Shown: piece after piece, positions 3 to 26,438 of the stretch | How positions within the stretch are numbered: position 1 is the first letter of the stretch | Layout: every line of letters begins with the position of its first letter | Translations under genes and position numbers: made by a program | Notes under the pieces: generated by a model | Told to the model about the DNA's origin: nothing | What the model saw: the letters and a program-made list of their open reading frames with translations, nothing else | Database searches by the model: none | DNA from: Pseudomonadota bacterium | GTDB lineage: Bacteria > Bdellovibrionota > Bdellovibrionia > Bdellovibrionales > Bdellovibrionaceae | Assembly (NCBI GenBank): GCA_041178425.1 | Contig: JBEGVH010000007.1 | Span: forward strand, 1-29,053 | Direction: 5' to 3' | Length of the DNA stretch: 29,053 nt

Positions 3-1526
3 CCACGTTTAGTTTTATCATTGGCTGGTCTTTTGCTCCTCTTAAGTCTGATGCTATTACCATTTATGGGAAATAATTTTTTACCTCAATTTAATGAAGG
101 AACGGCCACTATAGGTGTAGGAAGTATGCCCGGAATTTCCTTACCAGCATCAGATGCCCTAGGATTTGAGATTGAGAAGGCTATCGCATCGGTACCCGAG
201 GTCAAGTCTACCGTTCGTCGAACTGGCCGAGCTGAAATGGACGAGCATGCCGAGGGAGTGCATTGGCACGAAATCGATGTAGACTTTAACGAAAAGGGGA
301 GATCTCGACCCTTAGTGTTGAATGAGATCAGAGACCGCATCGAAGAAGTGGGAAATGTTTACGTTAATATTGGGCAACCAATTGGGCATCGACTGGACCA
401 CTTACTTTCTGGAGTAAGGGCCCAACTAGCGATCAAGATTTTCGGAACTGACCTTGCGGAATTAAGGAGGCTCGGGGGAGAAATTTTTGATGCCATTGAG
501 CCAATTGAGGGAATCGTTGACCTTCAGACCGAGGCGCTCGTTTTAGCGCCACAGTTAAAAATATCGATTGATCGCGAAGCAAGCGCCGGATACGGAATTC
601 GATCGGGTAGCCTCGCAAAAGACCTCGAGATCGCTTTGAATGGCGAAACTGTGGCCCAAATTATCGAAGGTCAAAGAATGTATGATGTTTTCATGCGGCT
701 CGACGATCAGTCGCGCGCAAGTCCTGAAAATCTTGCCGATACGTTGGTAAAATTTATGCCCACAGGTCAGGGAGTAAAACTCTCTGATGTTGCGAATATC
801 TATCAAGGAACCGGAGTTAATCTTGTCAACCATGAAGGTATGCTGAGACGATTTGTTGTCTCCGCAAACATTCAGGGGCGAGACCTCGCAAGTGTTGTCG
901 AGGAGGTTCAACGTAAAGTCTCTCATATAAAATTAGGTGAGGGATATTTTATCAAATTTGGCGGCCAATTTGAGAGCCAGAGAGAGTCCTCGAGGAGAAT
1001 TCTTTGGTTGGGTGTGCTTTCCTTATTGGGTGTTTTTGCAGCTCTTTATTTTCATTTTGGATCAGGGCTTTTGAGTTTGCAGGTGATGATGAATGTTCCT
1101 CTTGCTCTCATCGGAAGTATTACGGCCATTTATTTAACAGAAAAAACATTGTCCGTTGCGACGTTAGTGGCGTTTGTTACGCTTTGTGGAATTGCTACGC
1201 GCAATGGAATTTTACTCATTAGTCACTATCTACATTTGATGAAGAGCGAAGGTGAAAAATTCGATGAGCAGATGGTAATTAGAGGATCGCTTGAGAGAAT
1301 CATACCAGTTTTGATGACGGCCTCCACAGCGGCATTAGCTTTGGTTCCCTTGTTGCTAGCCAGCGGAGAGCCAGGCAAAGAGATCCTTTATCCGGTGTCG
1401 GTCGTTGTTGTGGGTGGTCTTATTTCATCAACTCTTCTGGACTTAGTAGTGACGCCTACAGTGTTTTTAAAGTTTGCAAAGAGAGCAGTTATGAAGTCTC
1501 TCCAAAAACAAGAACTAGAAAAATAA
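3..1526 (+). CDS. CzcA/CusA-family heavy-metal RND efflux permease, C-terminal part (5' truncated by window)
   Basis: Frame is open from position 3. Motifs FLPQFNEG, RRTGRAEMDEHAEG, GIATRNGILLIS, ERIIPVLMT, GGLISSTLL and multiple C-terminal TM helices are typical of HME-RND permeases. Confidence 0.92.
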   Translation, partial: PRLVLSLAGLLLLLSLMLLPFMGNNFLPQFNEGTATIGVGSMPGISLPASDALGFEIEKAIASVPEVKSTVRRTGRAEMDEHAEGVHWHEIDVDFNEKGRSRPLVLNEIRDRIEEVGNVYVNIGQPIGHRLDHLLSGVRAQLAIKIFGTDLAELRRLGGEIFDAIEPIEGIVDLQTEALVLAPQLKISIDREASAGYGIRSGSLAKDLEIALNGETVAQIIEGQRMYDVFMRLDDQSRASPENLADTLVKFMPTGQGVKLSDVANIYQGTGVNLVNHEGMLRRFVVSANIQGRDLASVVEEVQRKVSHIKLGEGYFIKFGGQFESQRESSRRILWLGVLSLLGVFAALYFHFGSGLLSLQVMMNVPLALIGSITAIYLTEKTLSVATLVAFVTLCGIATRNGILLISHYLHLMKSEGEKFDEQMVIRGSLERIIPVLMTASTAALALVPLLLASGEPGKEILYPVSVVVVGGLISSTLLDLVVTPTVFLKFAKRAVMKSLQKQELEK

Positions 1527-1537
1527 GGAGTATAAAA

Positions 1538-1996
1538 ATGATAAAAGTGTATCGATTGATTCTTTCGGCTATTCTTTTAATGTTCTCGTTGAATTCTTTA
1601 GGACACGATGAAGGCCACGGACCCAAAATTACCGATACCGGACGCTTTGGTGGACTCCTTTCGGCCGTCGTCGCAAAGGCAGAGGCATCGAAAGGTAAAC
1701 ACGCTGCCCTTGTTCTCAAAGCAGAACTCGTTCGTACTGGGGATGGACTCGTTCGCCTTTATTTGTATGGGCCTAATATGGAGAGCCTTGATTTAAAAAC
1801 GTTTAATCAAATAGCAAAAGCTGTCGTTGCATCGAAGACTAAAGGAAAATGGGTCGACGTGCCTTTTGAGCTTACGCTCAAGGAGAAATCATTTGAAGGG
1901 CAGTTACCAAAGTTTGAGGGACGGCCGTTCAACATCGATATTTCTCTTAAAAAGAACGATAGGGAGTTGTTAACGGCCTTTGACAACCTTGATTAG
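1538..1996 (+). CDS. Secreted/periplasmic hypothetical protein with N-terminal HDEGHG motif (possible metal chaperone)
   Basis: AAGGAG RBS upstream, signal peptide, His motif right after the predicted cleavage site; lies between the RND permease and TolC. Confidence 0.75.
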   Translation: MIKVYRLILSAILLMFSLNSLGHDEGHGPKITDTGRFGGLLSAVVAKAEASKGKHAALVLKAELVRTGDGLVRLYLYGPNMESLDLKTFNQIAKAVVASKTKGKWVDVPFELTLKEKSFEGQLPKFEGRPFNIDISLKKNDRELLTAFDNLD

Positions 1997-2003
1997 GATT
2001 GCA

Positions 2004-3296
2004 ATGAAGACCACTTTATCGAATCAATTTATATTCACCGTATTTGTGTTGTTTGTCGGAATGAAAGTTTTCGGCAACGAAAACCAAGCACAAGACAAGG
2101 CGGTGATTCATAAAATTACCTATGAGATGCTTTCAACGACTGTAAAAGAGAAGAACGAAAGCATCGAGGCGATGCAGATACGATCGAGAGTTCAGAATGA
2201 ACAGAAAGGCTTTTTAGGACGTTCCTTTTTTCCAGAGGTGGGAATTGTTGCGGGGCAAGAGCAGTTAAAGTTGAGCGTTCAGTCGCATGAACCCCAAAAC
2301 TTTTGGCAAATCAATGCAAAAGTGAATATTTACAATGGGGGCCGAGACGCAATAGAAAACCAAATTCGTAAGGTCAATGCTTCTTTCGCCGATTTGTATT
2401 TAATTAAAACGATTCAGAGCTCGGTGAGAGAGGCCCGCTTATGTTTTTGGAAGATTGTGGGCATTGACGCTCTGATCGCGATACGAAAGGATGCGCTCCA
2501 AAGAAACATTCAAAACTCGGCATCAGCAAAACGACGAGCGGGAGTGGGGCTCACCACGAGTGCTGATGTTGTTATGTTCAATATGAATAGGATAGGAATT
2601 GAAAGAGAGTTGAGCTTTTTAGAAATGCAGAGGCAAATAACCTTTCTGCGGCTGGGATCGCTTATGGGGCTAGAATCAGATAGAGCCTTCGAAATCGATT
2701 CGCGATTTCCTGACTTGAACGATTCAATGAGTTCAATAAAAAAAATCGAGCCCGAAAAACGGTGGGCACAAACCATAGAGAAAATGAATTCTCAAATGGA
2801 ACAATTAGAATCGTTGCGTTTGAGTCAGTGGTGGTATCCTCAAATCGACGCCTACTCAAGTCTTGGGCTGCCATCACTCCAGCAAGAATATGATCGAGCA
2901 ATTACGAAAGAGAGCCAATGGGTGGCAGGAATCAGATTGAATTTTAGCTTTGGCAACACGCTCGAGGAAAGGCTTCAAGCCAAAAGTAAAAAAGACAACG
3001 CGCTGGCTACATCTAAAGCAGTATCTCAGGCTGTGAGGGAAATAGCGGCCTCCCAAAAAGGTGTACAGAAAGAGATCGAGCAAATTGCACCACTTATTCA
3101 GTTGGTGGATCAGGATATTCAAGTAGCACAAAAATTTTTGCAGCAAACTGAGTCTGAGTACAATCGAGGTGTAAAAAATGGTCCCGATCTTCTCAACGCG
3201 ACTCAAAAGTATTTTGAATTTAGAGATAGAAAAATCCAATACCAAGAAACTTATTTTGCAAAAAAAGCTGAATTTGAGAGTTTTGATTTCGAATAG
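2004..3296 (+). CDS. TolC-family outer membrane efflux protein
   Basis: Signal peptide, two OEP-like halves (FFPEVGI... / WYPQIDAY...; AKRRAGVGLTTSADV / YNRGVKNGPDLLNA), operonic with the RND permease. Start placed at ATG 2004, after the previous stop. Confidence 0.85.
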   Translation: MKTTLSNQFIFTVFVLFVGMKVFGNENQAQDKAVIHKITYEMLSTTVKEKNESIEAMQIRSRVQNEQKGFLGRSFFPEVGIVAGQEQLKLSVQSHEPQNFWQINAKVNIYNGGRDAIENQIRKVNASFADLYLIKTIQSSVREARLCFWKIVGIDALIAIRKDALQRNIQNSASAKRRAGVGLTTSADVVMFNMNRIGIERELSFLEMQRQITFLRLGSLMGLESDRAFEIDSRFPDLNDSMSSIKKIEPEKRWAQTIEKMNSQMEQLESLRLSQWWYPQIDAYSSLGLPSLQQEYDRAITKESQWVAGIRLNFSFGNTLEERLQAKSKKDNALATSKAVSQAVREIAASQKGVQKEIEQIAPLIQLVDQDIQVAQKFLQQTESEYNRGVKNGPDLLNATQKYFEFRDRKIQYQETYFAKKAEFESFDFE

Positions 3297-8053: not shown

Positions 8054-8140
8054 GCCATTTATGCGCCATCTTTACTTTGGCGCATAAATGGCGCAAATAG
8101 TATGCGCCATCTTTACTTTGGCGCATAAATGGCGCATACT
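8054..8140. repeat. Tandem 36-bp duplication with palindromic TGGCGCA boxes (putative operator)
   Basis: TATGCGCCATCTTTACTTTGGCGCATAAATGGCGCA at 8060-8095 and 8101-8136; perfect 15-bp inverted repeat 8054-8068/8078-8092; 12-bp inverted repeat 8099-8110/8129-8140. Confidence 0.92.
8112..8140 (+). promoter_or_regulatory. Putative sigma70 promoter for a leaderless fic transcript
   Basis: TTTACT-N17-CATACT-N6-ATG(8147); no Shine-Dalgarno sequence before the ATG. Confidence 0.5.
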
Positions 8141-8146
8141 TTCAAT

Positions 8147-9187
8147 ATGCGGCAATACCCAAGATTAGACCAACACCAGATACCCTATAAATTTGAGTAC
8201 ACTGACAAGCTAGTCAGGCTTCTGATGCGAATTGCAGAAACCAAGCCCTATTTAGAAGAATACTTGGGGCAGCCTCTAGAGCTTCAACTTTTACGACAAG
8301 CAAAGATATTAGCGATCACCTATTCAAACCAAATTGAAGGCAATAAGCTTGAAGTCAGAGGCGTGACGCAAATACTGGAAAGCAAAAAAGGAAAAACTTC
8401 TGACAAAGACATTATCGAAGTCAGAAATTACAGTGATGCTTTAGACTATGTCGGAGTTTTGGCAGGGGAAAAAGAAAAAATAAAAATCGCAGATATGTGT
8501 GATATTCAAAAACTAATTACAAAAGACTTACTGGCTGATAAAAACCAATGGGGAAACGTCCGAACTGTAAAAGTTGAAATTGCAGATGCGAATACCGGAA
8601 AAAAGATTGACGATGTTCCTGAACCTCATTTTTTAAAAGAACTCCTCACTGAGCTTTGGGAATGGTTAGACGAAAACTCGGAGGTTAATCCATTTGTAAA
8701 AGCGTTTGCTTTTCATTATCTTGCTGTTGCTATACATCCTTTCGCGGATGGCAATGGACGCACAGTTCGCCTAATGCAACATTTGCTTCTTTTAAAAAAC
8801 GGTGAATCGATTGCCAAGTTTGTACCCAGCGAAACTGCAATTATGGCAACAAGGGACCGCTATTATTCTTCGATCAGGCGGTGTAAAAGTCTTAGTTCGC
8901 TGAATCCCATAGTTGAGTATCTAGCCGAATGTTTCGCGATTTCAGCGGAGCAGGTTATTGCCGATGGGAAAAAACTTGTTAAAAAAAGTATCGATCGAAA
9001 GCCCGAGGCTCGACGAGAAAAAATTGTTTCCTTCAGCAAACAGAAAAAAGAATTCACTCTGCAGGATATTTTGAATCTGCTGCCGGATGTACCTAGAAGA
9101 ACTGTGCAAAGAGATCTTGAGGCCCTTGTAAATGATAAGAAGATCAAAGCAAAAGGTGATAACAAAGCGCGGATTTATTTTAGATAA
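8147..9187 (+). CDS. Fic-family protein (class II, N-terminal inhibitory motif) with C-terminal winged HTH
   Basis: Canonical HPFADGNGRTVR; SNQIEG matches (S/T)xxxE(G/N); C-terminal LQDILNLLPDVPRRTVQRDLEALV...G...RIY is DeoR-like wHTH. Alternative start 8129. Confidence 0.93.
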   Translation: MRQYPRLDQHQIPYKFEYTDKLVRLLMRIAETKPYLEEYLGQPLELQLLRQAKILAITYSNQIEGNKLEVRGVTQILESKKGKTSDKDIIEVRNYSDALDYVGVLAGEKEKIKIADMCDIQKLITKDLLADKNQWGNVRTVKVEIADANTGKKIDDVPEPHFLKELLTELWEWLDENSEVNPFVKAFAFHYLAVAIHPFADGNGRTVRLMQHLLLLKNGESIAKFVPSETAIMATRDRYYSSIRRCKSLSSLNPIVEYLAECFAISAEQVIADGKKLVKKSIDRKPEARREKIVSFSKQKKEFTLQDILNLLPDVPRRTVQRDLEALVNDKKIKAKGDNKARIYFR

Positions 9188-9483: not shown

Positions 9484-9801
9484 TTATTCCATGTCGTAGG
9501 CATCGACGTCGCGACTGCGACGAATGTTTGTGAGGCTCTCTCCCATGGCTTTGATTTCGTTTTCAAAGGCCTCAAAAATGAGATCCTCAATTTCTGCTCG
9601 AGTTTCTTGGTTGAGGGGGTGGGCGATATCCCTAAACTGGCCATCTTTGCGCTTCTTGCTAGGCATGGCTACAAATAAACCATTGGGGCCCTGAATGATC
9701 TTTAGGTCGCGGACAACGAAACAATTGTCGATAGTGATACTAACGTAGGCTTTAAGTCTCTCTTCGTTGACGGGGAATATCTTAACCTCGGTGATCTTCA
9801 T
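9484..9801 (-). CDS. spoVG: SpoVG family nucleic-acid-binding regulator
   Basis: MKITEVKI...LKAYVSITIDNCFVVRDLKIIQGPNGLFVAMPSKK...FRDIAHPLNQETR; AAGGAGA RBS before ATG 9801. Confidence 0.96.
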   Translation of the reverse strand: MKITEVKIFPVNEERLKAYVSITIDNCFVVRDLKIIQGPNGLFVAMPSKKRKDGQFRDIAHPLNQETRAEIEDLIFEAFENEIKAMGESLTNIRRSRDVDAYDME

Positions 9802-9996
9802 GGCGGTCTCCTTTGCTGAAATGCAATGCTCAGTCATCAATGCTGTTAATCAGGAAACGGACCGGTATTTATAACTATATGCGTTAAATTGATAAATTAA
9901 AAGGCTTTTTCTCAAAATAAGACAATCTTAACCGGTTGTTTAAATGTAGTGAAGGCAGCCGTTAAGATGCAGTTTGATGGTGTTGGGCCTCCTCAA

Positions 9997-11214
9997 CTAA
10001 AGGGGCTCTTCGAAAAATTCTAAGTCTTTTCCGTAGCTTTCGCTCAAACGGAAATATCCCCAAAGAGCCACTCCAAAGCTAAATAAACCAACCATTAAGG
10101 CGCTTTGCTGGAGACTCATACGGGCCATTCCCCAGTTCAGAAGGGTTGTTAGAATAACCACTGTTCCGCGCACAAAATTAGGAGTCGTTGTGGCGATGGT
10201 TGCTCGCAGATTAGTTCCGAATTGCTCTGCCGCAATAGTCACAAAAATAGCCCAATAGCCCGAAGCAAGACCGAGCATAAAACAGAGCGTATAGAATGCG
10301 GAAGGACTGCTCCAGTGATTAGCAAGGTAAATTCCCATGAGAAGAAAATTGAAGATGAGAAACAGGCCCACAACCTTTTTGCGAGATCGCATCCACTGAC
10401 TGAGAAGACCACTCAGAAGGTCGCCGAGCGAAAGGCCTGCATAATTAAACATAATTGCTTTACCAGCAGTAATAGGTTCCGTGAGGCTCCAGCTTTTGCT
10501 CATTTCGGGGGCGAAGGTGATGAGGATTCCTACAACGAACCATATGGGCACGCCGATCGCTACGCATGAAAGAAACCGAACAAGGCGCTCCTTGCTTTGA
10601 AAGAGGAGTTTTAAATTGCCGGCATTTTCGTTCTTTGAGTGCACAAACATAGGGGATTCTTTAACCGAGACACGAAGTAAAAGGAGTGAGAGACCCATCA
10701 GGCCCCCGATGATGTAAGACACCCGCCATGGCACAAGGCCGGCAACCAGTCCGGCCACGACGGCCCCTAGTATGCCGAAGCTCGCAACGATCGTTGTTCC
10801 TAATCCCCTTGTTTCTTTTGACAAAACTTCACTCACCAAAGTGATTGCGGCTCCTAACTCTCCAGCCAAACCCAAACCAGCAATAAATCGTAGTGCTACG
10901 TAAGATGGAATATCTTGAACAAATCCATTTAAGAGGTTGGCAATTGAGTACAAAAAGATCGAACCAAAGAGCACCGACAATCGGCCTTTTTTATCACCCC
11001 AAACACCCCATAAGATGCCGCCGATGAGAAGTCCAGCCATTTGGGCGTTGATCAAGAGCATGCCTTTTTCGAGGACTTCGGTATCGTTAAGTCCAAGATC
11101 TTTTAAACTGCTCACTCTAACAATGCTAAAGAGAAGGAGGTCATAGATGTCGACAAAATATCCAAGGGCACTGACGAGAACAGCACGATGAAAAATGGAA
11201 GCTCTGAGGCTCAT
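9997..11214 (-). CDS. MFS transporter
   Basis: LGYFVDIYDLLLF, motif A GVWGDKKGR, LRFIAGLGLAGE, AEQFGTNLRAT; about 12 TM helices; AGGAG RBS. Confidence 0.93.
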   Translation of the reverse strand: MSLRASIFHRAVLVSALGYFVDIYDLLLFSIVRVSSLKDLGLNDTEVLEKGMLLINAQMAGLLIGGILWGVWGDKKGRLSVLFGSIFLYSIANLLNGFVQDIPSYVALRFIAGLGLAGELGAAITLVSEVLSKETRGLGTTIVASFGILGAVVAGLVAGLVPWRVSYIIGGLMGLSLLLLRVSVKESPMFVHSKNENAGNLKLLFQSKERLVRFLSCVAIGVPIWFVVGILITFAPEMSKSWSLTEPITAGKAIMFNYAGLSLGDLLSGLLSQWMRSRKKVVGLFLIFNFLLMGIYLANHWSSPSAFYTLCFMLGLASGYWAIFVTIAAEQFGTNLRATIATTTPNFVRGTVVILTTLLNWGMARMSLQQSALMVGLFSFGVALWGYFRLSESYGKDLEFFEEPL

Positions 11215-11299: not shown

Positions 11300-13210
11300 C
11301 TACGCAGATTGGGAATCTTTTTTCGATTTGTCGGAGGCAGAAGGATCCTGGGGAGTATCATCAGGTAAGAGGCCGGCAGCCTCGCGAATTACTGTGATTT
11401 CTAATAAGTCTACTTCTTGGGAGTACTCAGAGGTAAAAGTCTCTTGCGTTTCGACTGGCGGATTAAAGGCAAGGTGGAGGGCCGACTCTTCAGTTCCCGA
11501 AACAACTTCTAAAACCTCTACAACAGCCGGAAGTTCGGGCTCAGGGGTGGTAGGGGCGGTTGAAGTTTGAGTGATGCCAACCACAGTCTCTTCGTTAAAT
11601 TCGGTATTAGTGGCAGCTTCGTTTATTTGTGGTGAGTCGACAGGCTCTTGCAGTTGGATTTGTTGTTCTTGTGGTACTTCGAAATCGAAGGCCAATTGAT
11701 CTTCGATGGAAACCTCAATGCCGATCACGGTCTCTTCAGCAAGTTCTACTTCAAAATCAGGATCAGTGTGTTGAACTGTTCGTTGAACATCTTCTAACGG
11801 GTCGCCCTCGAAGTGAGGCTGCAACGCCGCAATCGAAAACTCAAAATCATCTTGCACCTTATGGTCACTTTGAATGACCTCATTTGCTTGCTTCTGATCA
11901 TCGGTCGATGGCGCAGTCGTAGCAGGGAAGTCTGTTACGATGGGCTTTATCTCTTCAATCACAGAGGGTGTCGCGACGGAAACTTTTGCCTCTGGTATTA
12001 CTTCGGCAGCGAGAGGAGATGGCGGGGGTTGAGCGACCGCAGCGGATATTGCAGAACCGTTGACAAGAGGTTCTGGCGGCGGCGGAGGTGGTGGTGGAGT
12101 CACTTTAATCTTTTGCAGCTTGGGTGATGCTCGTAAAGTTCTAGATACATCGTCTGAGTTTAATCGAGGATTGGGAGGCGGTGGGGGGCTTTGAGGCGTG
12201 AAGACGAGGCGGGGTAGCACGCCTTCTTTTACGTCACCGTCTTCGCTAGAAGTTTTTTTATTCGAGGCCGAACTCAATTCATCGGTAGCCGCAGAGCTCG
12301 CCGCTTTTGAATTGGCCTGAGGGTCTTTGCTGATGAAATGCTCGCGAAGCTGATTACCAAGATCCGTCAGTTCTTGAAACTCATCACTCGATCGAACCTT
12401 GAAAAATCGGTAATTTCCTGAGAGGAGATCTTGTACATATTTTTCAAAGGCATAGACGGGCCCCGCGACTCGCAATGAAAGCAACTTGCCAATGAGATAA
12501 AGGCCTCCGAGAAAAATTCCATTAACCGCCCCAAGGCTAAGCGCAAAAGGGATCAAATAGCGTTCGGCCAAATCGTGGTTGTCTCCGGTGAGAGTCAATA
12601 GCGTAACGCGAAGGTAGGTATAAGAAAATATTCCCGCGATAACTCCCATGCCGAGGCCGACCGTCATTAAGATCAAAAAATATTTGATCTGAAAACGAAA
12701 GTTGACCCATTGGGTTTTTCTCACATTGGTTTCTGGCCAAAAAATCTCAGCATGTTTCACGAGGCTGTACATAATCATAATGTGCCCAACCCACTGAATC
12801 GCATCGGCCACATTAAAGATAGGTGTGAGTTGAGAGCCATAGCGAAAGCTGATGAAATCAACAACATGTCCCCACGCAATGCGATCGGCGACATTGCCGA
12901 TAATTCCACCAAGTAGCAAAGACATTCCAATTCTCAAAATCATCGCTCTGCTGGGGATCAAATACTGCAATATAAAATAAGTAAAAATGAGAAAAGCTCC
13001 GCCGGTGGAAAGTGTGACAACTCGGAGAACCGAGGGCAGTTGACTAAATAGGCCTAGTATTGCACCAGGGTTGTAGTGGAGCGAGAAAAGCATATAGCCA
13101 TAATCCTGGGTGCCAACAAGCTTGAGAGCTTCAAGCTTTGTCCAGCGATCTAAGCCCCAGGTTGCGCCAAGGGCAAAGAGAATCCAAAACCAATCCTTTT
13201 TGCTTAACAT
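11300..13210 (-). CDS. lspA: Lipoprotein signal peptidase II domain fused to 2TM-HAMP-like module and long Pro/Glu-rich disordered tail
   Basis: LDRWTK, YNPGA, GNVADR, VVDF and FNVAD motifs; then TM helices and RVAGPVYAFEKYVQDLLSG...RSSDEFQEL (HAMP-like); poly-Pro and acidic tail. GAGGAG RBS before ATG 13210. Confidence 0.85.
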   Translation of the reverse strand: MLSKKDWFWILFALGATWGLDRWTKLEALKLVGTQDYGYMLFSLHYNPGAILGLFSQLPSVLRVVTLSTGGAFLIFTYFILQYLIPSRAMILRIGMSLLLGGIIGNVADRIAWGHVVDFISFRYGSQLTPIFNVADAIQWVGHIMIMYSLVKHAEIFWPETNVRKTQWVNFRFQIKYFLILMTVGLGMGVIAGIFSYTYLRVTLLTLTGDNHDLAERYLIPFALSLGAVNGIFLGGLYLIGKLLSLRVAGPVYAFEKYVQDLLSGNYRFFKVRSSDEFQELTDLGNQLREHFISKDPQANSKAASSAATDELSSASNKKTSSEDGDVKEGVLPRLVFTPQSPPPPPNPRLNSDDVSRTLRASPKLQKIKVTPPPPPPPPEPLVNGSAISAAVAQPPPSPLAAEVIPEAKVSVATPSVIEEIKPIVTDFPATTAPSTDDQKQANEVIQSDHKVQDDFEFSIAALQPHFEGDPLEDVQRTVQHTDPDFEVELAEETVIGIEVSIEDQLAFDFEVPQEQQIQLQEPVDSPQINEAATNTEFNEETVVGITQTSTAPTTPEPELPAVVEVLEVVSGTEESALHLAFNPPVETQETFTSEYSQEVDLLEITVIREAAGLLPDDTPQDPSASDKSKKDSQSA

Positions 13211-13229
13211 CAAAATACTCCTCGACGTC

Positions 13230-13256: not shown

Positions 13257-13438
13257 GGTTTTATGTTAGAATTTCAGTTTTAATTTAAATATTTAGACCT
13301 AGACGAATGACTTTGGTCAGGGTCTGGTTTAGGTTAATCAAAAGCGAGATCAGACCAAAGAAAAGCTTTTGTTAAGCTTTGGTGAAGTCGTCCGTTTGGC
13401 CGTGTCTTCTCATCGAAAAAGTGGCAATAATGGAATTA

Positions 13439-15586
13439 ATGACGACCAAGAAGTTAAAGAAAATATCAAAAAAGAAGTCGATGATGGACCCTCTTATGGA
13501 TCCCTCTCCCGATTTTGTGTTGCGTGACTTGAGCTGGCTCAACTTTAACAGGCGTGTTTTGCATGAAGCAAAAGATGATCGAACTCCTCTTTTAGAAAGG
13601 CTTCGCTTTCTTACCATTTTTTACTCCAATCTTGATGAGTTCTTCATGAAAAGAGTAGGCAACTTGAAGCGCCATGCGAGTCTCGGTTTGTCTATGAAAA
13701 ATCGTGAGGGTTTGACGTGGGAAAAAATGCACACGGATGTTCGTGAAAAAGTCGGGCATTTGGTTCGAGAGGCCCACGAAACGTTTGAAAAAGATATTCG
13801 CCGTCAGTTAAAAAATCACGGGATTGAGTTTTTAAAATGGGACGAGTTGAAGTCCGAAGAAAAGACTGAACTTCATGCTTATTTTCGTCGTCAAGTTTTT
13901 CCGGTTTTGACCCCCCTTTCTGTTGATTCAGGACACCCTTTTCCGTTTATCTCAAATCTTTCTACGTCTCTTGGTGTAGCTCTTACCTACCCTGATCGCG
14001 AGGGCAAATTATTCGCCAGAGTAAAGATTCCTAGAGTCTTACCACAGTGGATAAAAACGAGCGGCTCGGGATACCGATTCATAAGTCTCTTAGATTTAGT
14101 CAGAGCAAATGTTCAGGAGCTCTTTCCGGCGATGAATGTTTTGTCGGTTATGCCTTTTAGGGTCACGAGAGATGTCGATGTTGAACGAGACGAAGAAGAC
14201 GTCGAAGATTTACTTGAAATGATCGAAGAAGAAATCAAACAAAGACGGTTTGCATCGATTGTTCGTGTCGAATATCTAAGGCCCGGAGATCCATGGATCA
14301 TTAAATTTTTGGGCGAAGAACTTGAAATCAGCGAGGGAGACTTTTACGAAAATCCAATGCCACTCGATTATATGAACTTTCAATCGGTCGTGGATCTTAA
14401 CCTTTCACATCTCAAATACGATCCATGGGTTCCGCGGGTTCCTGCTGCTTTTCTTGATGAGGGGTCGATTTTCAATCTCCTGAGAAACAGTGATTACCTT
14501 ATTCATAATCCCTATGAGAGCTTTGGCGCGACCGTTGAACGTTTTATCAGTGATGCGGCCGTTGATCCTAAGGTTCTAGCTATTAAGATGACCTTGTATC
14601 GCACGGGCGACAACAGTCCCTTTGTGAAAGCCTTGGTGAGGGCGGCAGAAGCTGGTAAACAAGTCGTTTGTTTAGTAGAGTTGAAAGCGCGCTTTGATGA
14701 GGAAAGAAATATTTTCTGGGCGCAAGAGCTTGAAAAAGCCGGTGTGCATGTTGTTTATGGAATTGTTGGCCTAAAAACTCATTCAAAACTTGCCCTGGTG
14801 GTTCGCCAAGAACCTGACGGATTAAAGTGCTATTGCCACATTGGAACTGGGAACTATAATTCTTCGACGGCCCGTCTTTATACCGATTTAGGTTTCATGA
14901 CGACCAAGGAAGCCATTACTTCAGAAGTGATAGAGCTTTTCAATTACCTCACGGGGCGCTCTTTGCGAACGAGTTATCAGAAGCTTCTGGTTGCTCCCGT
15001 AAATATGTTTCAAAGATTTCAAGAAATGATTGAGAGGGAGAAAAGTATTGCGGCTAAGGGCGGTCCTTCCCATATCATCGCTAAGTGCAACAGCCTCGAA
15101 GAACGTCAGATTTCGCAGTCTCTCTATCGTGCTTCTCAGGCCAATGTTAAAATAGATCTCATTGTTCGCGGCTTTTGCTGTTTGCGTCCGCAAGTTCCGG
15201 GTTTGAGTGATAACATTCGAGTGATTAGTGTGATTGGAAGATTTTTGGAACACTCTCGTATTTATTATTTTCGAGCAGGAGCGGCCGATCCCATTGATGG
15301 TGAGTTTTATATTGGATCTGCAGATTGGATGCATCGAAACCTTCACGCGCGAGTAGAGGCGATTGTTCCGATTGAAGATCGTCCGTTGAAAGAAAAATGC
15401 TGGGATATTTTGCAAGTCATGTTGAATGATCAGCGTCAAGCATGGGATATGAAACCCACGGGTGAATTTGTACAGCGTACAGGCGGGAGTCAGGGAACAC
15501 ACGCTCAGTTGATGAATCAAACGAAGGCTAAATACGGGCATCATATTGAAGAACCTAAGATTGAAACGGACGAATCCAAGAACTAA
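13439..15586 (+). CDS. ppk1: Polyphosphate kinase 1
   Basis: RDLSWLNFNRRVL, SNLDEFFMKRV, HPFPFISNLS, ELKARFDEERN, LKTHSK, GRFLEHSRIY, GSADWMHRNL. Start uncertain (13379-13481). Confidence 0.97.
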   Translation: MTTKKLKKISKKKSMMDPLMDPSPDFVLRDLSWLNFNRRVLHEAKDDRTPLLERLRFLTIFYSNLDEFFMKRVGNLKRHASLGLSMKNREGLTWEKMHTDVREKVGHLVREAHETFEKDIRRQLKNHGIEFLKWDELKSEEKTELHAYFRRQVFPVLTPLSVDSGHPFPFISNLSTSLGVALTYPDREGKLFARVKIPRVLPQWIKTSGSGYRFISLLDLVRANVQELFPAMNVLSVMPFRVTRDVDVERDEEDVEDLLEMIEEEIKQRRFASIVRVEYLRPGDPWIIKFLGEELEISEGDFYENPMPLDYMNFQSVVDLNLSHLKYDPWVPRVPAAFLDEGSIFNLLRNSDYLIHNPYESFGATVERFISDAAVDPKVLAIKMTLYRTGDNSPFVKALVRAAEAGKQVVCLVELKARFDEERNIFWAQELEKAGVHVVYGIVGLKTHSKLALVVRQEPDGLKCYCHIGTGNYNSSTARLYTDLGFMTTKEAITSEVIELFNYLTGRSLRTSYQKLLVAPVNMFQRFQEMIEREKSIAAKGGPSHIIAKCNSLEERQISQSLYRASQANVKIDLIVRGFCCLRPQVPGLSDNIRVISVIGRFLEHSRIYYFRAGAADPIDGEFYIGSADWMHRNLHARVEAIVPIEDRPLKEKCWDILQVMLNDQRQAWDMKPTGEFVQRTGGSQGTHAQLMNQTKAKYGHHIEEPKIETDESKN

Positions 15587-21521: not shown

Positions 21522-22388
21522 ATGGAAATTAAAAACGTTGGTATTTTAGGTGCTGGGCAAATGGGCAATGGAATTGCGCAAGTCGCAGCGGCTTCTGGCT
21601 TTTCCGTTATGATGCAAGATATTTCAGAGAGTGCCTTAGAAAAAGGAATGGCAACTATCGCCAATAGCCTGGATCGTTTGATTAAAAAAGGATCGATGAC
21701 AGACGCGCAAAAAACAGAAGTGCTATCCCGAATTAAAACAACAACAAATGTTCAAGATTTTAAGAGTTGCGACATTGTGATTGAAGCGGCAACAGAAAAT
21801 ATCGATTTGAAATTAAAAATTTTCAAGCAGATCGATGAAATTCTTCCGGCTCATGCTCTTTTGGTTTCAAATACCTCTTCCATTTCAATCACCAAAATGG
21901 CGGCGGCCACTCGTCGTCCAGAAAAAGTGGCTGGAATGCATTTTATGAATCCTGTTCCCTTGATGAAATTGGTTGAAGGAATTCGTGGGTTACAAACTTC
22001 AGACGAAACTTTTTCTGCAATTAAAACCATGTCAGAAAAAATGGGAAAAGTTTTTGTCGAGTCAGTCAAAGACATGCCTGGCTTTATTGTCAATCGTATC
22101 CTTATGCCAATGATCAACGAAGCTGTTTACACCCTTCATGAAGGGATCGCTGGGGTTGAATCAATCGACGAGGCGATGAAGCTTGGAACCAATCAGCCGA
22201 TGGGCCCTTTAACTCTCGCTGATTTCATTGGTCTCGATACTTGCTTAGCCATCATGAATGTGTTGCACGAAGGTTTGGGCGATTCCAAATACCGTCCTTG
22301 TCCGCTCTTGGTTAAATATGTTGAAGCCGGTTGGTTGGGTCGCAAATCTGGGCGTGGCTTTTACAATTACGCCGAAATGAAAAAATAA
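21522..22388 (+). CDS. hbd: 3-hydroxybutyryl-CoA dehydrogenase
   Basis: GAGQMGNG, IEAATEN, SNTSS, GMHFMNP, GFIVNR, NQPMGPLTLADFIGLD, GRKSGRGFY; AAGGAG RBS. Confidence 0.95.
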   Translation: MEIKNVGILGAGQMGNGIAQVAAASGFSVMMQDISESALEKGMATIANSLDRLIKKGSMTDAQKTEVLSRIKTTTNVQDFKSCDIVIEAATENIDLKLKIFKQIDEILPAHALLVSNTSSISITKMAAATRRPEKVAGMHFMNPVPLMKLVEGIRGLQTSDETFSAIKTMSEKMGKVFVESVKDMPGFIVNRILMPMINEAVYTLHEGIAGVESIDEAMKLGTNQPMGPLTLADFIGLDTCLAIMNVLHEGLGDSKYRPCPLLVKYVEAGWLGRKSGRGFYNYAEMKK

Positions 22389-22402
22389 AGGAATACTTGG
22401 AA

Positions 22403-23194
22403 ATGGAATTTAAAAACATTCTTTTAAAAAATGACGAGAGTGGTGTTTGGGTTCTTACGATGAATCGCCCTCAAGCGTTGAATGCTCTCAATCTTGAAAC
22501 CCTGGGCGAGCTCGAACAAGCCGTCCATTTTCTCATGGAAAAAAAACCGATCGAGGCGCGTGCTCTTGTGCTAATAGGATCTGGTGAAAAGGCGTTCGTT
22601 GCAGGGGCTGATATCAAAGAAATGGTTTCTCTTTCTCCTGAACAAGCGAAAACGTTTTCAGAAAAAGGCCAAAAAGTATTGCGACAAATCGAGATGCTTA
22701 GAATGCCTGTGATCGCGGCTGTGAATGGATTTGCATTAGGCGGTGGTCTGGAATTGGCATTGAGTTGTGATTTTGTTTACGCCTCCGAAAATTCAAAATT
22801 TGGTTTGCCCGAGGTGGGTCTCGGCTTAATGCCGGGTTTTGGTGGATGCGTTCGCTTGTCTCGAGTCGTTGGACTCAACAAGGCTCGTGAATTGTCGATG
22901 ACCGGAGAAATGATCGGTGCAAACGATGCCCTCCAGATAGGTCTTGTACAAAAAGTACTACCGTCGACGGATTTGCTGGCTCACGCCATGAAAGTGGCAG
23001 CCACAATCGTTAGCCGAGGGCCTCGTGCGGTGGCTTCGGTGAAAAGAGTTGTAGTCGATGGCTACGATCTTGCGGCCGATGCGGCCCTAGCCCTCGAGGC
23101 TGACAGTTTCGGTCAGCTTTTTAAATTTAACGATAGCCGCGAAGGCATGACTGCTTTCGTAGAAAAACGTAAGGCTCAATTTCAAGGAAACTAA
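22403..23194 (+). CDS. crt: Enoyl-CoA hydratase (crotonase)
   Basis: NRPQALNAL, AFVAGADIKE, NGFALGGGLE, FGLPE, EGMTAFVEKR; start ATG 22403 after the hbd stop. Confidence 0.92.
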   Translation: MEFKNILLKNDESGVWVLTMNRPQALNALNLETLGELEQAVHFLMEKKPIEARALVLIGSGEKAFVAGADIKEMVSLSPEQAKTFSEKGQKVLRQIEMLRMPVIAAVNGFALGGGLELALSCDFVYASENSKFGLPEVGLGLMPGFGGCVRLSRVVGLNKARELSMTGEMIGANDALQIGLVQKVLPSTDLLAHAMKVAATIVSRGPRAVASVKRVVVDGYDLAADAALALEADSFGQLFKFNDSREGMTAFVEKRKAQFQGN

Positions 23195-23195
23195 T

Positions 23196-26100
23196 ATGGC
23201 TTACAAACCTCGGAACCCAATTCGTATTGTTACTGCGGCCTCTCTGTTTGATGGCCATGATGCTTCCATCAATATGATTCGTCGCCTTTTGCAAGAGGCT
23301 GGAGCCGAGGTGATCCATTTGGGTCATAATCGATCGGTCCTCGATGTGGTGAAAGCTGCTTTGCAAGAAGGCGCTCAGGGAATCTGTATGAGTTCTTATC
23401 AAGGTGGTCACATGGAGTACTTTAAGTACATGCGTGATCTTTTGAATGAAGCTGGCGCTCACTATGTTCAGATTTATGGTGGAGGCGGTGGGGTCATCAT
23501 TCACGAAGAAAAATTTGAGCTTGAGAAGTATGGTATTGCTCAAATTTTTCATCCAGATGATGGACGTCGTTTAGGGCTCGAGGGAATGACCGACCTCATT
23601 ATGCAAGGTTGTGATTACTCGCTCACCGAAGCTTTCGAGACGGCCTCCAAAAAAAATTTAAAACTTAGTCCGATTGATGTGCGTGATCCAATCCCACACC
23701 GAGAGTTAGGCGTTTGTTTGGCTGCCATCGAGGAGAGAAAAGCTCCCAATAAACAAATTTTAGGTGGCTTTCAAAAGTCTTCCAAAAAGCCACTTGTTCT
23801 GGGCATTACCGGAACGGGTGGAGCGGGTAAATCGTCACTGATCGATGAATTAGTCCTTCGATTTTTAGAAGCCTATGATCATGCAAAAATTGGTGTGCTC
23901 TGTGTAGACCCTTCGAAGCGAAAAACCGGGGGCAGTCTTCTAGGGGATCGTATTCGTATGAACTCCCTCGGCAGGCAAAGAGTGTTTATGCGCTCAATTG
24001 CCTCGCGGGGTTCAGGCAAAGAAATTGCGGATAGCTTGCCCGAGATGTTGAAGTTTTGCCGCGATCTCGATTTTGATCTTTTGATTGCAGAGACGAGTGG
24101 AATTGGTCAGGGCAATGTCGCGATCACAGAAGTGAGTGATGTGAGTCTTTACGTGATGACGTCTGAGTTTGGGGCTCAAAGCCAGCTCGAAAAAATTGAT
24201 ATGATTGATTTTGCCGACCTGATAGCAATTAACAAAGCGGATCGTCGTGGTTCAAAAGATGCACTTCGTGATGTTAGTAAACAGTATCGCAGGTCACGAA
24301 AAATTTTCGATCAATCGGTCGATGTTCCAGTATTTTTAACCCAAGCTGCTCAGTTTTGTGATGGTGGAGTTGATCGTCTCTTTGTGGCCCTCAACAAGGC
24401 CTTGGGAGCCAAGGACGAATACTGGAAAGTGGATGATTCTTATTTGGCGACAAGAGAGGCGCGAGAAGAACAAACAATTATTCCGAGTGAGCGACAAAAT
24501 TACTTAGCTGAAATTGTCCACACTATTCGCCGATACAAAGAACGAACTGATGAATTAGCCGAAAAAGCAAGTCTTCTTGGCGCTCTCACCAAGGCCAATA
24601 AAGAATGTTTAAAGGATGAACTGAAAATCCCGGAGATTCAAAAAGCACTAACCAATGAATTCTCCTTAGAAGAGAAGGGTTTGTTAGAATCATGGGATTC
24701 ACTGCAGCTACGCTACGGTGGTGACGATTTAAAATTCGAAGTGCGGGGACAAGTTTTTGCACAACCTCTGGTTTCGAAGAGCTTGAGTGGAACTAGAATT
24801 CCTCGCGTTGTGTTGCCAAAACTCCGTGATTGGGGTGATCGCTTTCGTTACTTGAGAATGGAAAACGTTCCTGGCGAATTTCCCTATACAGCTGGAGTGT
24901 TTCCACTGAAGAGAACCGATGAAGAACCTAAGCGAATGTTCGCCGGAGAGGGTGGGCCCGAGCGCACGAATCGGCGATTTCACTATTTATGCCAAGGAGA
25001 AAAAGCTCATCGTTTGTCGACGGCTTTTGATAGCGTAACCCTCTATGGGCAAGATCCAGATACGCGTCCAGATATTTTTGGTAAGGTGGGTGAGAGCGGA
25101 GTTAGTATTTGTACCCTCGAAGATATGAAAAAGCTTTATTCTGGTTTCGATCTTTGCGCCCCGAGCACGAGCGTGAGTATGACCATCAATGGGCCCGCAC
25201 CCATGATATTGGCCTTTTTCTTCAATACGGCTATCGATCAACAAAAAGAGAAAAAAGAAAAAGCCCTAGGGCGAGTCCTTACTGCTGAGGAACTTCACCA
25301 ACTGCGCGATGAAACGGTTCAGCAGGTGCGCGGAACAGTTCAGGCAGATATTCTCAAAGAAGATCAGGGGCAAAATACCTGCATCTTTTCGATTCAATTT
25401 GCACTCAAAATGATGGGAGACATCCAAGAGTATTTTGTAGGTAAGAAAATCCGAAACTTCTATTCTGTGAGTATCTCGGGTTATCATATCGCCGAAGCTG
25501 GTGCGAATCCAATCTCTCAGTTAGCGTTTACTCTTTCGAATGGGTTTACCTTCGTTGAGTACTATCTTTCGCGGGGATTAAAAATTGATGATTTTGCTCC
25601 TAACTTGTCGTTCTTTTTTAGCAATGGGCTTGATCCCGAATACACGGTTTTAGGTCGCGTCGCTCGCCGCATCTGGGCCATTGTTATGCGCGATAAGTAC
25701 GGTGCAAATGATCGCTCGCAGAAGCTCAAGTATCACATTCAAACGAGTGGTCGATCGCTGCACGCTCAAGAGATTGATTTTAATGATATACGAACTACCT
25801 TGCAGGCGTTGATAGCTCTTTACGATAACTGTAACTCACTTCATACCAATGCCTACGATGAAGCTATTACGACTCCGACCGAGGAGTCTGTACGAAGAGC
25901 CATGGCCATTCAGATGATCATTAATCGTGAATTTGGAATGATGAAAAATGAAAACCCTGTTCAGGGGGCTTATTTTGTTGATGAGCTGACCGAGTTGGTT
26001 GAAGAGGCAGTCCTTAATGAATTTTTGCGAATCAATGAGCGCGGTGGAGTTCTTGGCGCTATGGAAACTCAATACCAACGTTCACGTATTCAAGAAGAGT

Positions 26101-26438
26101 CGCTTTACTATGAACATTTGAAGCACTCAGGTGAGTTGCCTATCATTGGAGTGAATACCTTTATCAATCCGAAAACATTAGACCCCAATTACATTCCACC
26201 AAAAATCGAGTTGGCGCGAGCGAGTTACGATGAAAAACAAGATCAGTTAAAATCGTGCCAAAATTTTCAGGGCGAGAACGCTGATTTATCGGTTTTTGCA
26301 TTGAAGCATTTGAAAGCTCAAGTTGTAGCCGGTGGTAATATTTTTGAAGCACTCATGGATGCGGCGCGGGTTTGTAGTTTGTATCAAATGACCCAAGCCC
26401 TCTACGAAGTTGGTGGCCAATATCGTAGGAATTTATAA
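23196..26438 (+). CDS. icmF: Fused isobutyryl-CoA mutase/GTPase IcmF (AdoCbl-dependent)
   Basis: N-terminal B12-binding DGHD, MeaB-like GTGGAGKSS / GDRIRMN / NKAD, mutase barrel with RMFAGEG (Phe rather than Tyr), QADILKEDQGQN. Confidence 0.95.
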   Translation: MAYKPRNPIRIVTAASLFDGHDASINMIRRLLQEAGAEVIHLGHNRSVLDVVKAALQEGAQGICMSSYQGGHMEYFKYMRDLLNEAGAHYVQIYGGGGGVIIHEEKFELEKYGIAQIFHPDDGRRLGLEGMTDLIMQGCDYSLTEAFETASKKNLKLSPIDVRDPIPHRELGVCLAAIEERKAPNKQILGGFQKSSKKPLVLGITGTGGAGKSSLIDELVLRFLEAYDHAKIGVLCVDPSKRKTGGSLLGDRIRMNSLGRQRVFMRSIASRGSGKEIADSLPEMLKFCRDLDFDLLIAETSGIGQGNVAITEVSDVSLYVMTSEFGAQSQLEKIDMIDFADLIAINKADRRGSKDALRDVSKQYRRSRKIFDQSVDVPVFLTQAAQFCDGGVDRLFVALNKALGAKDEYWKVDDSYLATREAREEQTIIPSERQNYLAEIVHTIRRYKERTDELAEKASLLGALTKANKECLKDELKIPEIQKALTNEFSLEEKGLLESWDSLQLRYGGDDLKFEVRGQVFAQPLVSKSLSGTRIPRVVLPKLRDWGDRFRYLRMENVPGEFPYTAGVFPLKRTDEEPKRMFAGEGGPERTNRRFHYLCQGEKAHRLSTAFDSVTLYGQDPDTRPDIFGKVGESGVSICTLEDMKKLYSGFDLCAPSTSVSMTINGPAPMILAFFFNTAIDQQKEKKEKALGRVLTAEELHQLRDETVQQVRGTVQADILKEDQGQNTCIFSIQFALKMMGDIQEYFVGKKIRNFYSVSISGYHIAEAGANPISQLAFTLSNGFTFVEYYLSRGLKIDDFAPNLSFFFSNGLDPEYTVLGRVARRIWAIVMRDKYGANDRSQKLKYHIQTSGRSLHAQEIDFNDIRTTLQALIALYDNCNSLHTNAYDEAITTPTEESVRRAMAIQMIINREFGMMKNENPVQGAYFVDELTELVEEAVLNEFLRINERGGVLGAMETQYQRSRIQEESLYYEHLKHSGELPIIGVNTFINPKTLDPNYIPPKIELARASYDEKQDQLKSCQNFQGENADLSVFALKHLKAQVVAGGNIFEALMDAARVCSLYQMTQALYEVGGQYRRNL

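Follow-up and report, generated by a model that had tools for sequence, protein, structure and literature searches.

Lipoprotein maturation is commonly ascribed to a single, promiscuous signal peptidase II (LspA) that follows one lipobox consensus, taken here for comparison as [LVI][ASTVI][GAS]C and typically L-A-G-Cys. Spirochaete lipoboxes carry non-consensus residues before the lipidated cysteine, like the FQNC box that is the subject of this report, and the atypical lipobox of Synechocystis Ycf48 is also said to have non-consensus residues there. No dedicated signal peptidase II for atypical lipoboxes turned up in searches of an open-access library, nor did any description of FQNC lipoboxes or of a fusion of LspA to a transmembrane (TM) and HAMP module. 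The gene described here, lspA2, encodes a fusion of LspA to a HAMP-like module and lies on the minus strand of a 29,053-nucleotide stretch of DNA (the window; GCA_041178425.1, contig JBEGVH010000007.1, positions 1 to 29,053) that is contig C7 of the 3.06-Mb source genome G000, from a member of the order Bdellovibrionales in the phylum Bdellovibrionota. The data presented below have led us to propose that LspA2 is probably a dedicated second signal peptidase II for lipoproteins with an aromatic-polar-polar box of the FQNC type. What is new is the link between the LspA2 family and this candidate substrate class.

The peptidase and its candidate substrates

Residues are numbered throughout from the TTG start (residue 1), which gives a protein of 637 amino acids; the ATG at 13210-13208 on the minus strand gives one of 636. 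The gene and the parts that define it as a peptidase are as follows.

11300..13213, minus strand: whole gene, LspA2 (single open frame; no gap in an independent contig)
12749..13213, minus strand: signal peptidase II (peptidase A8) domain, residues 1-155, with four TM helices and a short beta-cradle (PF01252; model matches 6RYP and 5DIR)
12857..12859, minus strand: catalytic Asp119 (VVDF), kept in 146/146 close and 86/96 distant homologues
12803..12805, minus strand: catalytic Asp137 (FNVAD), kept in 146/146 close and 93/96 distant homologues
12791..12796, minus strand: Gln140-Trp141 on helix 4, family-specific candidate specificity residues (Ile-Val in canonical LspA of the order)

The close homologues come from a search with residues 1-300, which gave 26 long and 571 short matches, 146 of which were retrieved; the distant set consists of 96 full-length representatives. 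The peptidase domain matches PF01252 over residues 18-152 with 80.3 bits (cut-off 25), contains the motifs GNVADR, VVDF and FNVAD, and keeps all 14 residues listed as conserved in LspA in the accessible portion of PMC6952399 (D22, K26, N48, G50, G103, N107, D110, R111, V117, D119, F133, N134, A136 and D137). An AlphaFold model of residues 1-300, with a mean predicted local distance difference test score (pLDDT) of 84.7, superimposes on 6RYP (Z 18.0, root-mean-square deviation (rmsd) 3.5, 156 residues aligned) and on 5DIR (Z 17.2, rmsd 2.7, 148 aligned). Together, the profile, the conserved residues and the modelled fold confirm the intact LspA domain with both catalytic aspartates reported in the initial annotation. 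The protein nonetheless scores 57 bits against TIGR00077, the equivalog model of canonical LspA, below its cut-off of 73.95, and its conserved core spans 293 amino acids, not the approximately 160 of the stand-alone enzyme.

Comparison of 39 fused with 33 canonical LspAs revealed seven characteristic replacements, F to L53, L to S69, P to G72, A to I104, Y to V108, I to Q140 and V to W141, together with a shorter beta-cradle, in fused copies that all keep the catalytic motifs. Q140 is present in 38 and W141 in all 39 of the fused copies, while I and V occupy these positions in all 33 canonical enzymes of the order. The replaced positions lie on the extracellular loop and helices 2-4, which form the signal-peptide site according to the accessible portion of PMC6952399. 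W141 is kept in 24 of 30 copies that have a polar-lipobox neighbour and in 5 of 25 that have none, a comparison of related rows that overstates their independence.

Candidate substrates are found in G000 itself, where seven proteins carry a hydrophobic signal ending in FQNC, some of them with LamG domains, and none carries a signal ending in any of the five permutations of F, Q and N; of all triplets in 243 candidate boxes, only one is more frequent than FQN. At the DNA level, the pattern [FY]QNC occurs on average 12.6 times per genome in the order (n=63), against 2.8 for the control, which it exceeds in 62 of the 63 genomes; the mean in 188 other genomes is 2.55. Outside the order, 12 of 27 loci have a gene directly adjacent to the fused one whose signal ends in YQNC, FQNC, LQNC, YHNC, YTHC or YNQC, one more has such a gene two genes away, and two have neighbours ending in FQN-F or FQN-A. 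These 12 loci span the families f18, f21, f23, f24 and f29, and the mature parts of the adjacent proteins fall into nine groups without mutual BLAST similarity. Linked neighbours in other genomes carry collagen, DUF7151, DUF5648, NHL, DUF4331 or beta-helix domains, a content which suggests that the polar-lipobox proteins are surface fibres. Among 18 held-out loci with 1.5-kb flanks, some of them ended by a contig edge, FQNC was present in 3 and FQNA in 1, compared with 3 and 8, respectively, of 400 random 3-kb windows of G000.

In family f21, 41 of 91 genomes carry the fused enzyme (42 are listed; G279 has an N-half match only and G164 is partial). Here an operon that ends in the fused gene encodes exported proteins whose signals end in FNHC, FNQC, YNQC or YTHC. 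Of 31 matches to the operon lipoprotein, 5 (long or weak) were set aside after inspection; the remaining 26 orthologues come from 26 genomes, all within the 41 that have the enzyme, and from none of the other 50. The two genes share a contig and are no more than 10 kb apart in 23 genomes, among which two gene arrangements occur. All 19 operon proteins examined (12 from the set of 26 and 7 encoded by a second operon gene) have the polar box [FY][NT][HQN]C, whereas all eight set-aside or unlinked homologues of the same domain, four of them from genomes without the enzyme, have a canonical box with a small −1 residue. Linkage to polar-lipobox proteins, so far as sequences can tell, favours a change in substrate specificity over a sensing role. 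Two loci (L036:8996-13673 and L037:8733-13869) contain a four-gene operon without a good Pfam match, followed by the fused peptidase; it encodes two polar-lipobox proteins, one of them with CxxCH motifs, a Tat-signal protein and a CxxCH protein.

Several observations weigh against a dedicated enzyme. Spirochaete LspA accepts Asn at −1, and a dedicated enzyme is therefore not chemically required. The order-wide co-occurrence of enzyme and FQNC proteins is a single lineage-level evolutionary event; the three positive held-out loci all come from genus g62, already represented in the first set, and six new held-out loci of genus g147 include none with a polar-lipobox neighbour. In f21, 15 of the 41 enzyme-bearing genomes lack the operon lipoprotein, and 10 of 14 such loci examined show no polar-Cys neighbour; the eight homologues with canonical boxes could all belong to a single paralogous subfamily. 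An FQNC neighbour is missing both from the window copy and from the ancestral locus beside dacB, described below, and the genome-wide DNA pattern [FY]N[QH]C lies near the control or background. Q140 separates linked from unlinked copies poorly and is not fixed (18 of 30 and 10 of 25, respectively), and three linked neighbours lack the cysteine, their signals ending in FQN-F or FQN-A. Finally, mutants in Bd3246, a probable orthologue treated below, showed no defect on planktonic Vibrio cholerae in a mini screen (fitness 1.27; PMC6561027, accessible portion).

The signals without cysteine raise the alternative that LspA2 is a lipid-independent peptidase, or a sorting or holding factor, which recognises the F-Q-N signal itself, with lipidation of the cysteine incidental. 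Near fused genes such signals occur at L039:9043-10467 (FQN-F), L040:9914-11623 and L156:2282-3073 (both FQN-A), and G000 has two FQN-F proteins (C21:62585-63910 and C14:20524-22173), one of them beside a gene for a stand-alone protein with two TM helices and a HAMP-like part (2TM-HAMP-like). The extra TM pair of LspA2 may also pack on helix 3 of the peptidase, as weak coevolving pairs (I105-A193, R111-T199 and I112-T199) indicate. We nevertheless consider this alternative unlikely: adjacent linked neighbours mostly keep the cysteine (15 with and 3 without), the five non-Cys FQN signals of G000 are not clearly above their permutations (0-5), and the beta-cradle and lipid-site motifs are all kept, with both catalytic aspartates present in 30 of 30 copies linked to polar-lipobox genes.

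Two further candidates were pursued. An FQNC box was sought in the MIDAS (metal-ion-dependent adhesion site) adhesin Bd0875, but the VWA proteins retrieved carry either a canonical box or no box at all, and none was tied to Bd0875, the box sequence of which is not given in the accessible portions of PMC11003981, PMC10127604 and PMC10769870. A dedicated second Lgt was rejected: G000 has two lgt genes (C9:100156-101121 and C10:87741-88466), and at least two are present in 88 of the 91 f21 genomes, with or without the fused enzyme.

The HAMP-like module and the C-terminal tail

Beyond the peptidase domain and upstream of the gene, the following features were recognised.

12695..12748, minus strand: cytoplasmic linker, residues 156-173, with W159, P160, R165 and W169 (homologue conservation; pLDDT low at 163-170)
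12476..12694, minus strand: two additional TM helices joined by a short periplasmic turn, residues 174-246 (models; coevolution)
12335..12475, minus strand: divergent HAMP-like helix-connector-helix, residues 247-293, without output domain (profile, models and coevolution; fails Pfam HAMP)
11303..12334, minus strand: lineage-specific tail of low complexity, residues 294-637, predicted to be cytoplasmic and disordered (composition; homologue lengths)
11798..11845, minus strand: tail motif FEFSIAALQPHFEGDP, common only to the nearest long-tailed relative, P0003 (window-score test)
11303..11326, minus strand: Lys-rich C-terminus ending Ser-Ala (end conserved in the close clade)
13218..13223, minus strand: probable ribosome-binding site GAGGAG, 7 nt upstream of the ATG (sequence)

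A scan for promoters and terminators gave matches at chance level only. The reading frame runs without a stop or frameshift between the modules, as first described, and contig X2 (record 9, from a separate study) covers the whole gene with 30 substitutions and no gap; a frameshift fusion or assembly artefact is ruled out by this gapless contig and by conservation of the core in homologues. Among the 40 of 65 differences listed, codon changes in the core are 9 synonymous and 2 nonsynonymous, while the tail has 6 synonymous and 3 nonsynonymous in X2 and 3 and 6, respectively, in a piece of X4. The fused gene reads as two open reading frames, apparently split, at L044:7835-8720 (G214, split inside the peptidase domain) and at L118:7720-8676 (G225, by a TGA).

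Hydrophobic helices beyond the LspA domain span residues 174-199 and 220-242 approximately, and coevolving pairs connect them (G186-L238 and L182-G242). Directly after the second, on the cytoplasmic side, a helix-connector-helix is modelled with a pLDDT of 91, and its pairs 253-281, 259-281 and 261-288 coevolve in parallel-helix register (about 199 effective sequences). Profile alignment (hhalign) with six HAMP domains of G000 is in register (P...G...DE) with a score of 20.9, a probability of 32% and an E-value of 5e-4, against a maximum of 12.3 in 60 column shuffles. Structure searches with Foldseek returned WalK (9a5d, rmsd 1.8 over 83 columns) and Af1503 (2y0t, rmsd 2.6 over 46) at E-values that were not significant, and VIA-align listed generic helical hairpins and no HAMP domain among its top 50 rows. 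None of 145 fused members matches Pfam HAMP (PF00672) at E≤0.1, although one of 21 sequences of the module alignment does (E 6e-4), and a stand-alone protein on C22 of G000 reaches E 0.055. Look-alikes retrieved with ESM are stand-alone proteins of 138-152 amino acids (feature score 0.95-0.96), with HAMP found in 10% of one cluster. The module is HAMP-like rather than a proven HAMP domain, an identity that is moderately supported. The TM-HAMP-like module without output domain of the initial annotation is upheld, and the core of which it is part is strongly conserved; the Pfam HAMP profile does not support the HAMP-like segment. Nothing resembling the output domain of a TM-HAMP receptor follows the HAMP-like part, as the tail contains no Pfam domain and family tails have a median length of 25 amino acids.

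LspA2 may be regulated through its HAMP-like domain. This brings in a second alternative, in which LspA2 is a general LspA without special substrates, and the HAMP-like domain either switches its activity or signals the state of lipoprotein processing to a cytoplasmic partner. The cytoplasmic face is indeed highly conserved (R165, Q175, G251-P252, R274 and D277), and Bd3246 is listed as growth-phase induced (value 4.59) in the accessible portion of PMC6561027. Potential partners are five stand-alone 2TM-HAMP-like proteins without output domain in G000 (C9:49848-50312, C22:58656-59123, C10:126207-126686, C21:63918-64397 and C16:110879-111571), of which the C21 gene is convergent with that of an FQN-F exported protein; 14 such loci, when compared, had no neighbour in common. 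This alternative is quite improbable, as it leaves unexplained both the linkage to polar-lipobox genes and the lipobox switch within one protein family, the HAMP identity on which it depends is only moderately supported, and there is neither an output domain nor a conserved signalling neighbour, a GGDEF response regulator adjoining the fused gene in some ancestral loci only.

The tail was initially described as poly-Pro and acidic, without an output domain, and composition bears this out: Pro makes up 21.7% of residues 295-400 and Asp/Glu 21.9% of residues 401-637 (net charge −41), and no match to Pfam was obtained, a 15-bit hit to SUF_assoc (cut-off 143) being noise. Disorder would follow from this composition. 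Beyond residue 292, the 146 homologues have a median of 25 amino acids, with at least 100 in 8 and at least 300 in 5; long Pro-rich low-complexity tails are limited to one four-member subclade (support 100/99), and syntenic orthologues in two genomes of the same genus, G001 and G004, total 322 and about 345 amino acids (P0028 and P0030). The suggestion that the tail serves as a localisation scaffold is not supported by these lengths, and a conserved scaffold or hidden domain was rejected in view of the four-member subclade, the short homologue tails and the absence of Pfam matches. Among orthologues, where conservation of the tail had been proposed as a check, the core is conserved and the tail is not. 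Only two features persist: the 16-residue motif in common with P0003, for which the best 18-residue window scores 51 against best scores of 23-42 in 15 shuffles, and the SA/AS end, found in 18 of 24 close-clade members and in 15 of 1735 open reading frames of the genome, which we presume, from its resemblance, could be a protease degron. The tail is a recent, unconserved, lineage-specific add-on produced by ordinary low-complexity drift, and is probably a dispensable tether that needs only its SA end. Other family members end in a redoxin, a Zn-finger with an S-adenosylmethionine (SAM) methyltransferase, or an S74 chaperone domain. In the redoxin clade (L041:7421-8878; P0165, P0179, P0195, P0205 and others), a C-terminal AhpC/TSA domain with CxxC possibly provides redox input to the HAMP-like module.

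Distribution of the family and predation fitness of Bd3246

All 63 genomes searched in the order have the core (residues 1-293), as do 92 of 251 in the phylum (E≤1e-25); in a smaller genome sample it was found in 30 of 31, the missing genome being 87% complete. Each of 41 genomes examined from the order has a short canonical lspA as well. The check for a separate canonical lspA in G000 was positive (C10:88491-89024, adjoining lgt), and three fused copies accompany it. A scan of metagenomes for distant loci found nothing.

At its usual locus the family gene is divergent from a DacB/S13 carboxypeptidase gene and an SLT transglycosylase gene, near an exonuclease gene and motAB. This ancestral dacB locus in G000 (C10:45142-47025; L051 and L057) holds a fused paralogue with a Zn-finger-like and SAM-methyltransferase tail. 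The active-site residues of this paralogue are replaced in G000 but not in G001 or G004; no fused copy lies at the dacB locus of G003. The window clade is present in all five genomes of the genus. The window gene is a relocated duplicate, and likely the working copy in G000, because the dacB-locus copy there has lost its catalytic residues. The third copy (C26:78115-89833; L130) is a fast-evolving duplicate of the window gene with an S74 chaperone end, flanked on both sides by paralogous proteins of approximately 1300 amino acids with YGTNC signals.

The order at the window locus is spoVG-MFS-lspA2, with spoVG and the MFS transporter downstream (9484-11214, minus strand) and polyphosphate kinase 1 (ppk1; 13379-15586, plus strand) divergent. 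Identity to G001 and G004 is 81-86% for these neighbours and about 70% for the peptidase core. A functional link to any of the three was rejected, as the synteny holds in only 3 of the 5 genomes of the genus. Elsewhere in the window, all on the plus strand, lie the C-terminal half of an AcrB-type pump, a 152-residue protein without assignment and an outer-membrane efflux protein (21-3296, where the contig begins), a Fic-domain protein with a winged-helix-like C-terminal region (8129-9187), and a 3-hydroxyacyl-CoA dehydrogenase, an enoyl-CoA hydratase and a fused B12-binding/MeaB/mutase protein, which we take to be IcmF-like (21522-26438).

Bd3246 (EP01_RS01465) of Bdellovibrio bacteriovorus adjoins a carboxypeptidase and a transglycosylase gene and is annotated as a lipoprotein signal peptidase plus "signaling protein" (PMC6561027). 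A family member linked to dacB groups with B. bacteriovorus proteins that carry the name signal peptidase II, and synteny and annotation make Bd3246 the probable orthologue of the family's dacB-locus gene. In the accessible supplements of PMC6561027, fitness of Bd3246 mutants by transposon-insertion sequencing was 0.19, 0.19, 0.013 and 0.20 in the full screen and 1.27, 0.26, 0.0095 and 0.018 in the mini screen, and the two genes on each side had values of 0.9-3.2 overall and of 0.9-1.9 in the full screen. The mutants grew without prey and were normal in attachment (1.50±0.64) and rounding (0.85±0.19). As to redundancy of the two peptidases, neither lspA is in the list of 201 essential genes, and the values for canonical lspA and lgt have very large standard deviations. 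The words lspA, signal peptidase and lipoprotein are absent from the accessible main text of Duncan et al. 2019 (PMC6561027). Bd3246 is important for predation under most of the conditions tested; its mutants lose fitness and those of the flanking genes do not, and therefore canonical LspA apparently does not cover for it.

These data also bear on a third alternative, that LspA2 is a back-up LspA insensitive to globomycin or myxovirescin, like the extra lspA of antibiotic producers. The loop aromatic that clamps both antibiotics (Trp57 in Staphylococcus aureus; PMC6952399) is Leu in 34 of 39 fused copies, and additional copies of lspA are known from Myxococcus xanthus and Streptomyces (PMC8689077). 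Such a role is very improbable, since the fitness of Bd3246 mutants is reduced when no antibiotic is present, a back-up role predicts neither occurrence in 63 of 63 genomes nor linkage to polar-lipobox genes, and no antibiotic cluster was seen in the loci examined.

Proposed mechanism and relation to known systems

We propose a model in which a dedicated LspA2 and canonical LspA divide the lipoproteins between them: canonical LspA would handle ordinary L-A-G-Cys boxes, and LspA2 a special class typically with F-Q-N before the cysteine. FQNC proteins would be exported via Sec and lipidated on the cysteine by Lgt, and LspA2 would then cut before that cysteine, after the polar −1 residue. The large amide side chain at −1 would make FQNC boxes poor substrates for canonical LspA. 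The two extra helices (TM5-TM6) and the HAMP-like hairpin might dimerise LspA2 and gate the peptidase from the cytoplasm, and the mature substrates, to judge from their domain content, would reach the cell surface. In G000, the window copy would now supply the FQNC-cleaving activity. A broader version, which we put forward tentatively, is a second, address-coded maturation route in Bdellovibrionota, with the FQNC tag on unrelated surface fibres and adhesins read only by LspA2, the HAMP-like domain releasing the class on cue in the predatory cycle, and the peptidase and a tagged gene moving between lineages as a cassette.

If the model is correct, lipoprotein biogenesis would gain a new sorting level through a second signal peptidase II that has its own lipobox, predator surface proteins overlooked by standard lipobox rules would be identified as a class, and the uncharacterised predation-fitness gene Bd3246 would be explained, in a genetically tractable organism. 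The tail matters little to this significance.

Compared with Bd3246, the window gene is a relocated duplicate (spoVG-MFS-lspA2, with ppk1 divergent) that has a long tail. M. xanthus, with lspA1-4, and Streptomyces likewise have more than one signal peptidase II per genome, but these are tied to housekeeping or to an antibiotic cluster, and no fused TM-HAMP or separate substrate class is described for them in the accessible portion of PMC8689077. With HAMP domains such as those of Af1503 and WalK, which gave the best low-rmsd structural rows, LspA2 has in common a TM helix, an amphipathic helix starting with Pro, a connector and a DE-capped helix; unlike HAMP receptors, it has no Pfam HAMP match and no kinase, MCP or cyclase output, and its peptidase is on the N-terminal side. 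The module also resembles that of stand-alone 2TM-HAMP-like proteins of Omnitrophota, Spirochaetota and Elusimicrobiota (ESM 0.95-0.96). To canonical LspA (peptidase A8; 5DIR and 6RYO/6RYP), LspA2 is related by its fold (Z 17-18), four TM helices, beta-cradle and 14 conserved residues including the Asp dyad. It differs in having about 140 extra conserved residues, a score below the TIGR00077 cut-off, changes at positions 53, 104, 108, 140 and 141 and a shorter cradle, in coexisting with a canonical lspA-lgt pair, and in its predicted substrate box, [FY][QNT][NQH]C as against [LVI][ASTVI][GAS]C.

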